DNA of 64,000 nucleotides, from sequence record PZ386965.1. One strand, written 5' to 3'. This stretch comes from a phage. Each line of letters opens with the position of its first letter. Within the stretch, counting starts at the first letter, position 1. The notes under the pieces were generated by a model. The model had not been told where the DNA came from and made no database searches. It was given only the letters and a program-made list of their open reading frames with translations. This document shows positions 10,462 through 57,976 of this stretch, in pieces. A program made the translations under genes and the position numbers.

Positions 10462-10469
10462 TATAAATA
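10462..10469 (+). promoter_or_regulatory. late promoter TATAAATA upstream of HNH endonuclease gene
   Basis: Exact TATAAATA about 45 nt upstream of ATG at 10515. Confidence 0.5.
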
Positions 10470-10514: not shown

Positions 10515-11231
10515 ATGAATTATAACTCAATATACGAAAAGCTTATTACCAATGCTAAATCAAGAAGTTTAGATGGTTATACAGAACGTCATCACATTAT
10601 ACCACAATGTTTAGGTGGAAGTGATGATGCTTCAAACTTAGTAGACTTAACACCAGAAGAACATTATTTGGCACATCAACTGTTGGTAAAAATCTATCCA
10701 GATAATGCCTCTTTAATATACGCTGCTCGTATGATGACCATATCATCTCCTAAAGCAGATAGAAGCAAAAACAAATTATTTGGATGGCTTCGTCGTAAGA
10801 ATCAAGAAGTTCAAAAGAACAAAGAATTCACGGCTGAAACCCGTAAGAAAATGTCCGAGTCTGCAAAAAATAAACCAAAGATTACCTGTCCACATTGTGG
10901 TTTAACTGGAACTGAAGGAAACATGCGTCGTTGGCATTTTGATAATTGTAAACAAGGTCCAACGCCTAAAATAGTAAAATTATCTGATGATGAAAAACAG
11001 AGGATAAGTTCTAAACTTAAAACAATAGAGTGGAAACTCCACACATGTGTACACTGTGGTCTAGAAGGAAAAGCTTGCAATATAGTTCCTCATGAGAAAA
11101 ACTGCAAACTTAATCCTAATAGAATAAAACCTAATGTAACAATAGTGGAATGTCCATACTGCTCTAAAAGTGGTTCTATATCAAATATGAAAAGATGGCA
11201 TTTCGATAATTGTAAATATAAGCCTCATTAA
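10515..11231 (+). CDS. free-standing HNH homing endonuclease with three Cys-rich repeats
   Basis: HNH core HHIIPQCLGGSDDASNLVDLTPEEHYLAH; three repeats of CxxCG...RRWHFDNCK; only plus-strand gene inside a minus-strand block. Confidence 0.85.
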   Translation: MNYNSIYEKLITNAKSRSLDGYTERHHIIPQCLGGSDDASNLVDLTPEEHYLAHQLLVKIYPDNASLIYAARMMTISSPKADRSKNKLFGWLRRKNQEVQKNKEFTAETRKKMSESAKNKPKITCPHCGLTGTEGNMRRWHFDNCKQGPTPKIVKLSDDEKQRISSKLKTIEWKLHTCVHCGLEGKACNIVPHEKNCKLNPNRIKPNVTIVECPYCSKSGSISNMKRWHFDNCKYKPH

Positions 11232-52999: not shown

Positions 53000-53590
53000 T
53001 TATCGCAAGGAAGGGTGTCTAGAAATGGATTTAGATTCGACTGCTTGACGTGGTTGTTGAGATACAATGACTTCGCCATCCTTTTCTATCGTCATATACG
53101 CGTAGTGAATAGTTGCTACGCACGTAACGGCAGGGTCAGAGTCTTCAGTGTAACTAAATTCAATTTCACTCAAATCAGAAATCCATGGTTTATAGAAATT
53201 TGCCGTCAAAACTACTTCGGTCTTATTGTTGTTTAAAATGTGCAAAGTAACAAACTCAGGACCATCTGAGTGGGCCGTATTATGTCCGGTTATATAGTTA
53301 TTAGTGCTGAGCATCCATTTATACATGTTCATCCAGGACGTCATGTCTTCATCAACTATAAATCGTACAACAAAAGGGTCATATTCAAATGTGGTGCCTG
53401 CACGCATTGCACGTCCTAACCCCATTGTGCCTGTCACAGTTTCAACAACAGGAATTCTCACACCTGGCAATGGTGCCGTTTGGGCATTGAGCACAAAACC
53501 TGAAGTTCGTGTACTATCCGGGATATCCACAACAAAGTTTGTTATATTTGTTTGGTTAAAAATCTGTCTCGCTGGACGAGTCATAAGCAC
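53000..53590 (-). CDS. 3: tail completion / sheath stabilizer gp3 (by position)
   Basis: ORF between genes 1 and 2 as in T4; start uncertain. Confidence 0.65.
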   Translation of the reverse strand: MLMTRPARQIFNQTNITNFVVDIPDSTRTSGFVLNAQTAPLPGVRIPVVETVTGTMGLGRAMRAGTTFEYDPFVVRFIVDEDMTSWMNMYKWMLSTNNYITGHNTAHSDGPEFVTLHILNNNKTEVVLTANFYKPWISDLSEIEFSYTEDSDPAVTCVATIHYAYMTIEKDGEVIVSQQPRQAVESKSISRHPSLR

Positions 53591-53686
53591 CTCAAAAACG
53601 CTTTAATAAAAATGCAGTATAATGGTTTTAGGTCTCTTCCATTAATCCGGTTCAACAGAATATCAGAAGAACGGAAGAGAATAGAA

Positions 53687-54508
53687 TTAAGATTTCCAAA
53701 CAGTATTCGCGGAGAAACGTTTTCCTTTTGACATAAACTGCTGAGTAGGTAACATGATTATGTTAGCCCAGTCTTTAGGAGCTATTTCTGTTATTGTTCC
53801 TCTAATGTGGCCTGGCAGGTATGCTTTAATCATTTTGTCAGCACCTTGAAATCCTTTCACCTTGCTCCAGTCTATCTTCAACTTCGTGTTATTAGTAATA
53901 GTAGTTGTGCTAGCATATTGCTTCAGCAATTCTTCAAGAAACTGTTGTCGTGCTTTAGGTGGGATATAGTGCAAGTTTAACCCATACATCAAATTATGTT
54001 TACCCAATCCTAAATAAATAATCAAAGGATATCTGTCCCAATACGGCAGAGTATCTTTATGTTTAGCATCATACACGTAAGTATAAATTTTGCCTGGCGT
54101 AGGCTTGACTACTTTATGACCTTTTACACTTTTCTTAATTGTTTCAACAAACCACTTAGATGATTTGTTGTTTACTGCTGCGCCTTCATTTCTAATCTTT
54201 TCTCGTATTGAACTGCGAAACGAGTTTATCATCAGAAGTTGACGTTCTTGCTTATTAAGTTTATTTTTAGGTTTAGATTCAAGCGTTTCAATTTTCTGTG
54301 CAGTCTTAATAGATGATGCATATCTAGACATTGCAGATGTAAACGACGAGTATTTTATTCCTTTTGATTCTGCAAATGCTTTTGCAGTGATTCCTTTCTC
54401 TTTAGCTTTCTTGTATTCTAATCCTATCTCAATCCATTTTCTTTCATTCATAGACTGAGCAATCTTAGGGGCTTGTACGCCTTCAGATATAATTTGGAAT
54501 ATGCTCAT
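53687..54508 (-). CDS. 2: DNA end protector gp2
   Basis: 273 aa; [39 protein letters not shown] collinear with T4 gp2. Confidence 0.9.
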
Positions 54509-55155
54509 TCAACTTTCCTCATTTTACAATTATCACCATGCCAACGTTTATAAGGCGCAGGTTTACATTCTATACCGCAGTATTGGCATATCTTATTAGG
54601 AGTATTTAAGTATCCTAATCTCATGTTTTCCTTTTCTTCAGGAGTTCTATTTCGTCCCGTAAGAGTATTTTTTATTTTGTCTCTAATCTCTTTAGGCATT
54701 ATCCTGCCTCGGCCTGCTTTACCTATTTTAGCTTTATGCTCTTCGGATAATTTCTTACCCTTCTTAGCTAAACTCATTTTCTTTTTAGATTCTTCGGAAA
54801 TAGGACCTAATTTTCTACCTCTGGATGAATCGCCTATTCTTTTTCGCACATCAATAGAACGGCCTCGTCCTCCCTTTCCTCCTAGGTCTATATTATATGT
54901 ATCTTCTCTATCCACAAAAGATTGATCAACTAATTCTGCTTCCTTTTGGAAAGCCATTTCTTCATTTAGTAATTCGTCACCGGTATCATACACATATAAT
55001 ACTTCTTTTACAAAATTATCTAATCCGTATTTAGCATGGGCTTTTAAGATAATTTTACCTGTTCCTTTATAAGAATCATCCGGGTTATTAGTTTTATGAA
55101 CACCTATATAAATTTTATTATTTACGATGTTAGTTATTTTATATACAGTATACAT
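54505..55155 (-). CDS. free-standing GIY-YIG homing endonuclease (Seg-like)
   Basis: [27 protein letters not shown] motif; basic linker; C-terminal [22 protein letters not shown]; inserted between genes 2 and 4. Confidence 0.85.
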
Positions 55156-55156
55156 A

Positions 55157-55606
55157 TCATCCCTTATATCCTAAACGACGTAAACCGTCTTCTGTGAGAA
55201 TTCTGAATTTAATATTTCTTTTAGCCGCTAATGCTGACGCAGCTTTCCATTTGTCGCAGTTCACAGACCACACGTAGATCTCGTTCATATAACGTTTCTT
55301 TGCTGCAGTAGTAAGATTTGCAGGCTTAATAGGCGGTTGAGTTTCTTTCTTTGGTTTTATTTCTACAAAAAACTCTTGACCTGATGCATCTTTCATCCAT
55401 ATGTCCATATAGTATCGACGTTTCTTACCTTCTGCGTTACAGAAATATGGAATTACTGCTGTTTCACTACCCCATGCAATAATTTCTGGATTTTTATCTA
55501 ACCATTCGAAAAAGAATTTTTCCCAGTTTGAACGATACGTTATTTTGGTATGGTCTCCACGGTATTTTTTTAAATTTTTCGGGACCCATTTACCAGAGTA
55601 GGCCAT
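55157..55606 (-). CDS. 4: head completion protein gp4
   Basis: MAYSGKWVPKNLKKYRGDHTKITYRSNWEKFFFEWLDKNPEIIAWGSETAVIPYFC collinear with T4 gp4. Confidence 0.93.
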   Translation of the reverse strand: MAYSGKWVPKNLKKYRGDHTKITYRSNWEKFFFEWLDKNPEIIAWGSETAVIPYFCNAEGKKRRYYMDIWMKDASGQEFFVEIKPKKETQPPIKPANLTTAAKKRYMNEIYVWSVNCDKWKAASALAAKRNIKFRILTEDGLRRLGYKG

Positions 55607-55617
55607 GTTGTCCTCCT

Positions 55618-55625
55618 TATAAATA
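55618..55625 (+). promoter_or_regulatory. late promoter TATAAATA for gene 53
   Basis: Exact TATAAATA 43 nt upstream of gene 53 ATG. Confidence 0.6.
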
Positions 55626-55633
55626 GTATTATT

Positions 55634-55641
55634 ATTTATAC
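55634..55641 (-). promoter_or_regulatory. late promoter TATAAATA for gene 4
   Basis: Plus tatttata = TATAAATA on minus, ~28 nt upstream of gene 4 ATG. Confidence 0.55.
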
Positions 55642-55667
55642 CAATTTCATATTGGAAGGAGACTATC

Positions 55668-56243
55668 TTGTTATTTACATTCTTCGACCCAATAGGATAT
55701 AGTGCTAAAACAGTTGATAAGAATGCACCTACTATTCCTATGACAGACATATTTCGTAACTATAAAGAGTACTTTAAGCGTGTGGCTGCCAATTATAGAT
55801 TACGTTCTTATTACATTAAAGGCTCTCCACGTCCTGAAGAACTAGCAAACATAATTTATGGCAACCCGCAATTATACTGGGTTCTTTTGATGTGCAACGA
55901 TAACTACGACCCGTATTATGGTTGGATTACATCTCAGGAAGCAGCGTATCAAGCGTCTATTCAGAAATATGCAAATGCTGGTGGAGACCAAATTCTTTAC
56001 CATATTAACGAGAACCGTGAGAAATTTTACAATTTAGTTTCATATCCGGATGAGCCTTTAGTGTGGTATGATAAAGGTGATGAAGCTCGTAAGTATCCAC
56101 AATATAAAGGACCTTTAGCTGCAGTAGATACTTATGAAGCGGCAGTATTAGATAATGAAAAACTTCGTAAAATAAAAATTGTTGCAAAAGAAGATATAAA
56201 CTCGTTTATTACTGATTTGATTCGTGAGATGGAGATTGCATAA
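55668..56243 (+). CDS. 53: baseplate wedge protein gp53
   Basis: MLFTFFDPIGYSAKTVDKNAPTIPMTDIFRNYKEYFKR... near-identical to T4 gp53 as recalled. Confidence 0.95.
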   Translation: MLFTFFDPIGYSAKTVDKNAPTIPMTDIFRNYKEYFKRVAANYRLRSYYIKGSPRPEELANIIYGNPQLYWVLLMCNDNYDPYYGWITSQEAAYQASIQKYANAGGDQILYHINENREKFYNLVSYPDEPLVWYDKGDEARKYPQYKGPLAAVDTYEAAVLDNEKLRKIKIVAKEDINSFITDLIREMEIA

Positions 56244-57976
56244 TGGAAATGATTAGCAGTAGCCTTAATTGGTTCGTGGGTGTTGTCGAGGACAGAATGG
56301 ACCCATTAAAACAAGGACGAGTTCGAGTTCGAGTCGTTGGTCTTCATCCGGCACAGAGAGCACAAGGTGATGTACAAGGTATTCCTACAGAAAAACTTCC
56401 ATGGATGACTGTTATTCAACCTATTACGTCTGCGTCAATGTCAGGTATTGGTGGTTCTGTTACAGGTCCTGTTGAAGGAACTCGAGTATATGGTCATTTC
56501 TTAGACAAATGGAAAACAAACGGGATTGTACTTGGTACATACGGCGGGATTGTACGTGAAAAGCCTAATAGACTTGAAGGTTTTTCTGACCCTACAGGTC
56601 AATATCCACGACGTTTAGGTAATGATACGAACGTATTAAACCAAGGTGGTGAAGCTGGTTATTATTCAAACTCTAACGTAATTCAAGATAACAACTTGGA
56701 TTATGGTATAAACCCAGATGATACAGATTTAGCAAATATTCCAGAAGATGACGACCCTAATTTTACAATAACAGAAATGTTACGTCGTGACGAAGGTCTT
56801 CGTGATAAAGTGTATTGGGACCATCTCGGGTATCCTACAGTAGGTATTGGACACCTTATCGTAATGGAAAAGACCCGAGATATGTCTCGAATTAATAAAT
56901 TGTTATCCGATCAAGTAGGGCGTGAAGTAACAGGAAATCCCGGGACTATTACATTAGAAGAAGCAACAGCGTTATTTGAGAAAGACCTTGCTAAGATGCA
57001 GAAAGACATTCGTTCTAATTCTAAAGTAGGTCCTGTTTATGCTAAAATGAACAGGTCTCGCCAAATGGCATTAGAAAACATGTGTTTCCAAATGGGCGTT
57101 GGTGGTGTAGCAAAATTCAATACTATGCTTAAAGCAATGGCCACAGGTGATTGGAAAACAGCATACAAATCTGGGCGTGATTCATTATGGTTCCAACAGA
57201 CTAAAGGTCGTGCTTCACGCGTAACAACAATTATTTTAACTGGTAACATGGAATCGTACGGTGTTCCTGTTAAAACACCACCTTCACCAGGAGTCGGTGC
57301 CGATTTAGTTACTAGAAATACCGATTCAGAAGACCCGGCCGGTCCTCCTGTTCCATTAGATTCACGTATCCTTTTTAAAGAACCGGAATCAAGTTATCGC
57401 GGTGAGTATCCATACGTTCATGCTATGGAAACAGAAAGTGGTCATATCCAAGAATTTGACGATACTCCAGGTAATGAACGTTATCGATTAGTTCATCCAA
57501 CAGGGTCATATGAGGAAGTTTCTCCGTCTGGGCGTCGTACTCGTAAAACTGTAGAAGACCTTTTTGACATCACTAATGGTGATGGGAACTTCTTGATTTC
57601 CGGTGATAAACTTGTTAACGTTGGTGCTAATGAAATATATTATAACATGGCAGACCGCCTCCATCAAATAGACGGCAATGACACAATCTTTATTCGTGGT
57701 AACCAAACTAAAACTGTTGAAGGCGATGGAACTCTTTACGTTAAGGGCAATATCAAAATAGTTGTTGACGGAAATGCAGATATTCTTGTTAAAGGTGATG
57801 CTAAAACTCAGGTTGAAGGGAACCATGATTACACCGTCAACGGAAACGTTAAATGGACTGTTAATGGTAATGTTGATATGACTGTTGCCGGGGATTGGGC
57901 AGAAACGATGTCCACAATGAGCTCAGTAGCTTCAGGACAATACACTGTTGACGGATCTCGTATTGATATTGGGTAA
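56243..57976 (+). CDS. 5: baseplate hub / tail lysozyme gp5
   Basis: 577 aa; internal lysozyme domain EMLRRDEGLRDKVYWDHLGYPTVGIGHL; C-terminal beta-helix octapeptide repeats. Confidence 0.95.
   Translation: MEMISSSLNWFVGVVEDRMDPLKQGRVRVRVVGLHPAQRAQGDVQGIPTEKLPWMTVIQPITSASMSGIGGSVTGPVEGTRVYGHFLDKWKTNGIVLGTYGGIVREKPNRLEGFSDPTGQYPRRLGNDTNVLNQGGEAGYYSNSNVIQDNNLDYGINPDDTDLANIPEDDDPNFTITEMLRRDEGLRDKVYWDHLGYPTVGIGHLIVMEKTRDMSRINKLLSDQVGREVTGNPGTITLEEATALFEKDLAKMQKDIRSNSKVGPVYAKMNRSRQMALENMCFQMGVGGVAKFNTMLKAMATGDWKTAYKSGRDSLWFQQTKGRASRVTTIILTGNMESYGVPVKTPPSPGVGADLVTRNTDSEDPAGPPVPLDSRILFKEPESSYRGEYPYVHAMETESGHIQEFDDTPGNERYRLVHPTGSYEEVSPSGRRTRKTVEDLFDITNGDGNFLISGDKLVNVGANEIYYNMADRLHQIDGNDTIFIRGNQTKTVEGDGTLYVKGNIKIVVDGNADILVKGDAKTQVEGNHDYTVNGNVKWTVNGNVDMTVAGDWAETMSTMSSVASGQYTVDGSRIDIG

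Follow-up and report, generated by a model that had tools for sequence, protein, structure and literature searches.

Two endonucleases of different nuclease fold, encoded in one phage genome, carry the same Cys-rich module: is this the trace of an exchange between their genes or of an older relationship, and what is the enzyme that bears the module at the junction of genes 4 and 2? We addressed both questions in the window, the whole 64,000-nucleotide stretch of phage DNA analyzed here. Megablast comparison of positions 53000..57000 with a phage collection identified the window as a Mosigvirus (RB69-like, T4-type coliphage), with phages p000v, ChristianSchoenbein, HX01 and GADS24 matching at ~98% over 100% of the query. 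The names of the flanking genes 2 and 4 are those annotated in the closest phages, and a protein 100% identical to the 216-aa product encoded between them is present in phages p000v and HX01, where it is annotated as a 'homing endonuclease'. We regard it as highly probable that the 216-aa protein is a free-standing, Seg-like GIY-YIG homing endonuclease, precisely inserted between gene 4 and gene 2, in which a basic, flexible tether of NUMOD3-type helices leads to a terminal zinc finger of the I-TevIII/MobE type. The endonuclease gene is thus already annotated and its finger type already characterized in I-TevIII; the finding is real, not new.

The insertion is compact (Table 1). The endonuclease ORF starts 1 nt past the gene 4 stop codon, and its own stop codon overlaps the gene 2 start in an ATGA sequence. 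Phage moha, in which 2 nt separate the gene 4 stop from the gene 2 start, differs at the junction solely by lacking the 650-bp ORF; in T4 the junction is uninterrupted as well. The endonuclease gene occurs in 6 of ~154 close relatives (at least 95% identity); the remaining ~148 lack exactly the 650-bp ORF and have an uninterrupted gene 2/4 junction.

Table 1. Features at the gene 4/gene 2 junction and at the HNH endonuclease locus, in window coordinates
Feature	Position	Strand	Basis
Gene 2, DNA end protector, 273-aa ORF	53687..54508	minus	relatives' annotation
Free-standing Seg-like GIY-YIG homing endonuclease gene	54505..55155	minus	216 aa plus stop; ORF list
GIY-YIG catalytic domain, aa 1–95	54871..55155	minus	alignment, AF2, Foldseek, weak Pfam
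Basic linker, aa 96–186, NUMOD3-type repeats SxExxxKxxxxxKG	54598..54870	minus	Pfam, AF2
C-terminal C2HC zinc finger (predicted), aa 190–211, I-TevIII/MobE type	54523..54588	minus	motif, homology, AF2
Gene 4, head completion protein, 150 aa	55157..55609	minus	comparison with phage moha
T4-type late promoter consensus TATAAATA, preceding gene 4	55633..55640	minus	consensus match only
HNH (Mob-like) homing endonuclease gene, free-standing, flanked by genes 45.2 and 46	10515..11231	plus	PHROG 655, E 3e-66
HNH finger 1, CPHCGLTGTEGNMRRWHFDNCK, strict motif	10887..10952	plus	regex, BLASTP
HNH finger 2, CVHCGLEGKACNIVPHEKNCK, degenerate: X11 spacing, no RWH	11046..11108	plus	regex
HNH finger 3, CPYCSKSGSISNMKRWHFDNCK, strict motif, counterpart of I-TevIII finger 2	11151..11216	plus	regex, BLASTP
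Two-finger cassette, diverged from the NRG-P0074 allele	10981..11195	plus	allele comparison
Late promoter consensus TATAAATA, 46 nt before the HNH start codon	10462..10469	plus	consensus match only

The N terminus of the 216-aa protein carries the GIY...YIG motif pair as YTVYKITN...KIYIGVH. A search of PDB sequences with the full-length protein returned zero matches, and both relevant Pfam families scored below their gathering scores (SegE_GIY-YIG, 21.1 bits versus a cutoff of 25, E 4e-4; GIY-YIG, 11.8 bits versus 22.6). PHROG 314, a 'homing endonuclease' family, was matched at E 1.7e-50, and a large protein database held 318 homologues, many named Seg-like or group I intron endonuclease. An alignment of 67 homologues revealed invariant residues Y16, G18, Y29, G31, N88 and G93, with Y5, E72 and others nearly invariant. 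E72 and N88 are the counterparts of the I-TevI catalytic residues E75 and N90 and are conserved in the 67 homologues; for the catalytic arginine, R27 in I-TevI, this sequence alignment has no invariant arginine column. An AF2 model built on the same alignment reached a mean pLDDT of 92.9, with values of 92–97 across the beta-alpha N-terminal domain formed by residues 1–95, and the best Foldseek matches were structures 1mk0 and 1ln0 of the I-TevI catalytic domain (probability 0.96–1.00, TM 0.53 on the target). By homology, the ORF is a GIY-YIG endonuclease of the Seg/SegE-like clade, with enzyme activity predicted on the same grounds. These results, above all the Foldseek probability of 1.0 and the PHROG 314 match, bear out the initial annotation, which had described a 216-aa GIY-YIG endonuclease with a basic linker between genes 2 and 4. 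Residues 96–186, the linker, contain 28 K+R versus 11 D+E. The NUMOD3 assignment of this linker comes from a Pfam match (PF07460) in two stretches at 20.7 bits versus a gathering cutoff of 20.4, and the AF2 model folds it into five short helices, at residues 101–111, 121–131, 138–148, 155–165 and 172–184.

The linker ends in the Cys-rich tail that had been taken for a putative zinc-finger DNA-binding module shared by the GIY-YIG and HNH enzymes. Its ligands are spaced C190-x2-C193-x12-H206-x3-C210 and fit the motif CX2CX12-13HX3C, which was defined in the two zinc fingers of I-TevIII, an HNH endonuclease encoded by the nrdB intron of phage RB3 (PMC1865063). In BLASTP comparisons the tail is 56% identical to I-TevIII finger 2 over 32 aa (E 1e-8), and the finger regions of the window's GIY-YIG and HNH proteins align with each other at E 1e-6 and 2e-5. 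C, C, H and C are the sole invariant columns in an alignment of 38 fingers. In the AF2 model of the 216-aa protein the tail forms a beta-hairpin followed by a helix at pLDDT ~95–97, and modeling 44 residues with just the finger again gave a confident result (core pLDDT ~95) with a hairpin and then a helix. By sequence comparison, the Cys-rich tail is a genuine module, homologous in the GIY-YIG and HNH enzymes, and a finger of the I-TevIII type.

The finger has no dedicated Pfam family, only scattered weak matches to generic zinc ribbons, and the isolated finger found no significant counterpart in structure searches, as might be expected if the tail bore a chance or low-complexity resemblance without a metal site, the alternative named in the initial annotation. 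We consider this exceedingly improbable. A loose regex, C..C-x9-15-H-x3-C, finds exactly 4 sites in the six frames of the 64-kb window, one at the C terminus of the GIY-YIG ORF and three in the HNH ORF; 200 mononucleotide shuffles gave a mean of 0.2 sites and never reached 4. The pairwise E values of 1e-6 to 1e-8, the invariant ligand columns, the 11,306 protein clusters recovered with a finger profile (see below) and the zinc stoichiometry measured in the homologous I-TevIII fingers (PMC1865063) argue in the same direction, and chance and low complexity were rejected as the source of the motif on the shuffles, the pairwise E values and the size of the family.

The tail is implicated in DNA binding because of its membership in this CX2CX12-13HX3C finger type. 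C-terminal fragments of I-TevIII hold ~2 Zn, one per finger, in a PAR/MMTS assay, and replacing C211/C214 or C242/C245 with alanine costs half of the zinc and impairs both DNA binding and cleavage (PMC1865063). In I-TevIII of phage RB9, a member of the RB3 species, the fingers begin at C211 and C242 with cysteine pairs 211/214 and 242/245, and these finger cysteines are exactly the residues mutated in that study. We therefore infer from the homologous I-TevIII fingers that the finger of the GIY-YIG protein binds zinc and DNA, the role that mutagenesis established for I-TevIII and that the annotation as a putative DNA-binding module had anticipated. I-TevI contains a different, C4 zinc finger that acts as a distance determinant and not as a DNA binder (PMC1865063, PMC2988022), and the role of the finger in the GIY-YIG protein is therefore not certain.

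We compared the tail with the finger array of the HNH enzyme, where the module had been described as triplicated. Three CxxC...H...C units are present, of which two are strict; the middle one, CVHCGLEGKACNIVPHEKNCK, lacks RWH and retains the four ligands only, so the description was a little generous. This degenerate finger 2 is the counterpart of I-TevIII finger 1, CKLNPNRI linker included, and HNH fingers 2–3 align with the finger 1–CKLNPNRI linker–finger 2 segment of I-TevIII at E 1e-14 (BLASTP). The GIY-YIG protein also matches PHROG 655, the family of the HNH enzyme, through residues 114–212 (E 1e-8).

The initial annotation had read the shared module as domain shuffling between homing endonuclease families within one genome. 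Recent copying of a finger-coding segment between the HNH gene at 10515..11231 and the GIY-YIG gene would draw on the facts that a single genome holds both genes, that their fingers share the motif (K/R)RWH(F/G)DNCK and that recombination can exchange finger cassettes, as the two-finger cassette of the HNH gene illustrates. The finger sequences themselves speak against it. The GIY-YIG finger matches HNH fingers 1 and 3 at 45/87 nucleotides and 11/29 residues, a nucleotide identity of 52% that argues against recent exchange within the genome, and it is nearer to I-TevIII finger 2 of RB3-type phages (56%) than to HNH finger 1 or 3. Proteins with the same GIY-YIG, NUMOD3 and finger architecture already occupy the gene 4/gene 2 junction in other genera: one from the Lazarusvirus Konradin, an Acinetobacter phage, is 50% identical, and one from the Pseudotevenvirus GAP161, a Cronobacter phage, is 41% identical. 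Both the fusion and the insertion site therefore predate these genera. The two genes are also distributed independently. The HNH gene occurs in 14 phage records, all without the GIY-YIG gene, and is missing from RB69 and HX01; the 6 records with the GIY-YIG gene lack the HNH gene or are not among its carriers, and none of the 50,697 records in the phage collection has both. Recent copying within this genome is accordingly very unlikely, and this part of the initial annotation does not hold. The finger common to the two enzymes would instead reflect long-standing reuse, across the whole family, of a single small DNA-binding module.

Exchange of finger cassettes is visible elsewhere, at the HNH gene itself. 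Compared with the HNH gene of phage NRG-P0074, the window's gene is ~99% identical over 10515..10980 and over its final ~35 nt, and positions 10981..11195, the coding region of fingers 2 and 3, have ~50% nucleotide identity at unchanged length. The contrast between these alleles directly shows a sharply bounded mosaic replacement of a two-finger cassette, and with it the exchange of finger arrays between near-identical alleles. This swap supports module shuffling in general and not shuffling between the window's two genes.

We surveyed the occurrence of the finger beyond this genome. In a word-indexed protein database the finger profile retrieved 46 short ORFs of 32–77 aa only; eleven that we inspected resemble endonuclease remnants, and as such a set is unsuited to a tally of domain partners, we used an exhaustive HMM search and custom HMMs instead. 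Covering 1.84 billion representative proteins, the exhaustive search found the finger profile in 11,306 clusters at E <=1e-3 and in 1,393 at E <=1e-10, with arrays of up to 12 fingers. Among the best 149 finger-bearing proteins, the custom HMMs recognized a GIY-YIG domain at the N terminus of 75 and an HNH domain in 45; among the other 29 are short ORFs with fingers only and what look like divergent GIY-YIG variants. Seen from the nuclease side, 36 of the best 120 homologues of the GIY-YIG protein carry one or two fingers of the I-TevIII type. The finger shared between both nuclease folds is a family-wide property. It agrees with the published view that the DNA-binding regions of GIY-YIG and HNH endonucleases are beads-on-a-string modules shuffled among catalytic domains (PMC2988022, PMC1865063; see also PMC10448857). 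The searchable literature yielded no published description of the finger in GIY-YIG enzymes. The characterized I-TevIII finger is thus far commoner than this literature suggests and is attached about equally often to GIY-YIG and HNH domains.

In sequence, the finger also resembles classical zinc fingers, and classical C2H2 and TRAF-type C2HC beta-beta-alpha fingers were counted among the closest known systems. Its ligand spacing is that of C2H2 fingers, and a comparison of the finger profile with PDB sequences placed C2H2 fingers at the top and in register (ZBTB17, E 2e-5; CTCF; a consensus finger). The best match of the exhaustive search is a 3,179-aa protein built of C2H2-type repeats. We tentatively suggest, as a possibility to which we give rather low odds, that I-TevIII/MobE-type C2HC fingers form a very large phage family of beta-beta-alpha fingers related to classical C2H2 fingers, in which cassette swaps of exchangeable DNA-reading units retarget endonucleases of either fold. 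If true, programmable zinc-finger nucleases would have a natural counterpart in prokaryotic viruses.

The sequences flanking the insertion bear marks of mobility. On the gene 2 side, the nearest 300 nt are identical to those of endonuclease-free relatives. On the gene 4 side, ~200–300 nt of the 3′ end next to the endonuclease gene have diverged from these relatives, with identities per 50-nt bin, counted outward, of 32, 40, 44, 43, 48 and 47 and then at least 49. This tract reaches >=97.7% identity in the 6 endonuclease carriers alone; in non-carrier Mosigvirus records it is always at <=89%. We predict that the gene 4 3′ tract is a co-conversion tract, a protected target site or both. The divergence, which is the sole pointer to the target site, could also simply be imported donor sequence.

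Together with what is known of I-TevI, I-BmoI and the T4 Seg enzymes, these observations suggest a model for homing in which enzyme activity, target site and the role of the finger are assigned by analogy. During mixed infection, the C-terminal region would bind an endonuclease-free allele near the gene 4/gene 2 junction, with the finger as terminal anchor and the NUMOD3 helices lying along the groove. The tethered nuclease domain would then cut both strands at a nearby site that probably lies in the 3′ end of gene 4, and recombinational repair from the carrier genome would transfer the endonuclease gene together with adjoining gene 4 sequence to the recipient. The polymorphisms in the gene 4 3′ end would protect the carrier's own allele.

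Expression of the endonuclease is predicted to follow that of its neighbors. A T4-type late promoter consensus precedes gene 4, and a consensus scan found no second one between 55633..55640 and the endonuclease start; co-transcription with the late genes is therefore likely. The putative promoter at 55633..55640 probably drives a transcript of gene 4, the endonuclease gene and gene 2, an assignment to be read with the count of this consensus over the whole window, which equals chance expectation.

This arrangement, in which the gene apparently shares a transcript with essential late genes and is translationally coupled to them, would also suit a decayed or domesticated endonuclease that persists as an immobile passenger or as a DNA-binding regulator like the I-TevI autorepressor, with the finger in a repressive or structural role. 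Defunct endonuclease genes are frequent in phages, T4 I-TevIII being one, metagenomes often hold short finger-only remnant ORFs, and in the SegE-like clade no counterpart of the canonical arginine is obvious. The ORF is nonetheless full length, the GIY-YIG core residues Y5, Y16, G18, E72 and N88 are conserved, the AF2 model is confident throughout, and the presence/absence pattern with its tightly linked flank polymorphism is the product expected of active homing. We judge decay or domestication unlikely and retain the reading of the gene as a mobile homing endonuclease.

Comparison with characterized endonucleases places the 216-aa protein between known types. The T4 Seg proteins (SegA–G) share its Seg-type GIY-YIG domain, with T4 matches of ~48% identity over residues 1–96, and they too are inserted between conserved genes and sporadically distributed; SegB has NUMOD3-type linker repeats as well (PMC2330249). 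The C-terminal regions of the T4 Seg proteins are unrelated to that of the GIY-YIG protein, and T4, unlike the window, lacks an endonuclease gene between genes 4 and 2. In a regex scan of T4 positions 1–150,000, MobE and the I-TevIII remnant were the only bearers of the finger, which none of the seven Seg proteins has. The final 19 kb of T4 are not known to hold seg or mob genes. With the finger absent from the well-studied T4 Seg enzymes, the combination of a GIY-YIG domain with a finger is an architecture without a biochemical model.

T4 MobE ends, like the GIY-YIG protein, in one finger of the same type, CPHCGKKVNKGNALRWHYDKCK, and PHROG 655 unites the window's HNH enzyme with the Mob-like endonucleases; MobE differs from the GIY-YIG protein in nuclease fold, being a nicking enzyme of the HNH type. 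I-TevIII resembles the GIY-YIG protein in the spacing and sequence of the finger, but it is intron-encoded and dimeric with an HNH domain and two fingers, whereas the GIY-YIG protein is free-standing and joins its nuclease domain to one terminal finger. I-TevI and I-BmoI, the source of the mechanistic analogy (PMC2988022, PMC3664794), share the order of catalytic domain, flexible linker and beads-on-a-string DNA-binding region, and the catalytic fold matches. In I-TevI the C4 finger lies inside the linker and the terminal anchor is a helix-turn-helix, in contrast to the terminal C2HC finger seen here. Beyond correct annotation the locus has little significance, and it exemplifies the known modular build of homing endonucleases; natural combinations of nuclease and finger could nevertheless interest engineers of I-TevI-based nucleases.

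Two smaller observations concern the genes around the insertion. The 197-aa ORF listed at 55157..55750 on the minus strand is an over-extension of gene 4; comparison with phage moha gives the real CDS as 55157..55609. On the opposite, plus strand, the ORF list places gp53-like and gp5-like ORFs at the locus.

Comparison of the Mob-like HNH homing endonuclease gene with its counterpart in phage NRG-P0074 reveals ~99% nucleotide identity outside a single ~215-nt block, in which identity falls to ~50%. By megablast coverage, the gene is likewise ~99% identical to genes of ~12 other phages, with the same block excepted. The divergent block encodes fingers 2 and 3, is identical in length in both versions, and represents a mosaic replacement of a two-finger cassette. 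The window's version of the cassette was found only in record OZ035759.1.

The same C2HC zinc-finger type occurs in T4, where MobE carries it at the C-terminus (CPHCGKKVNKGNALRWHYDKCK) and the truncated I-TevIII contains two copies, and is absent from all T4 SegA-G proteins. The top finger-profile match in database searches is a 3,179-aa protein with repeated classical C2H2-type fingers (CPLCGTGFYSASNMRRHFNQVH), a hint that the phage finger is related to C2H2 fingers. Among the database proteins matched (P0121-P0166 and P0167) are numerous metagenomic ORFs of 32-77 aa composed of one or two fingers, some also bearing a NUMOD3 or GIY-YIG stub; these short ORFs are probably decayed endonuclease remnants.

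With a T4 late-promoter consensus 46 nt upstream, the HNH gene is apparently served by a late promoter of its own, and the GIY-YIG endonuclease gene apparently lacks one. Two further consensus matches are arranged back-to-back between gene 4 and gene 53, and the octamer count across the whole window equals chance expectation.

Features of the endonuclease loci and T4 finger sites
Feature	Position	Strand	Note
HNH divergent block, window	10981-11195
HNH divergent block, NRG-P0074	L007:1382-1596
T4 finger sites (MobE; truncated I-TevIII)	T4T 139753-139815 and 138630-138788
Late-promoter consensus	10462-10469	+	upstream of HNH gene
Late-promoter consensus (TATAAATA)	55618-55625	+	between gene 4 and gene 53
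Late-promoter consensus (TATAAATA)	55633-55640	-	between gene 4 and gene 53
Gene 4 mechanical ORF	55157-55750	-	197 aa

For gene 4, annotated relatives place the true start at 55609 (MAYSGKW), giving a 150-aa product; the extension in the mechanical ORF runs over the divergent gp53 start region and was rejected as an artefact. In Acinetobacter phage Konradin (L006:2975-3633), the orthologous block of gene 4, endonuclease and gene 2 is directly followed by a Mob-like HNH endonuclease gene, and gene 2 is therefore flanked by two endonuclease genes in this phage.
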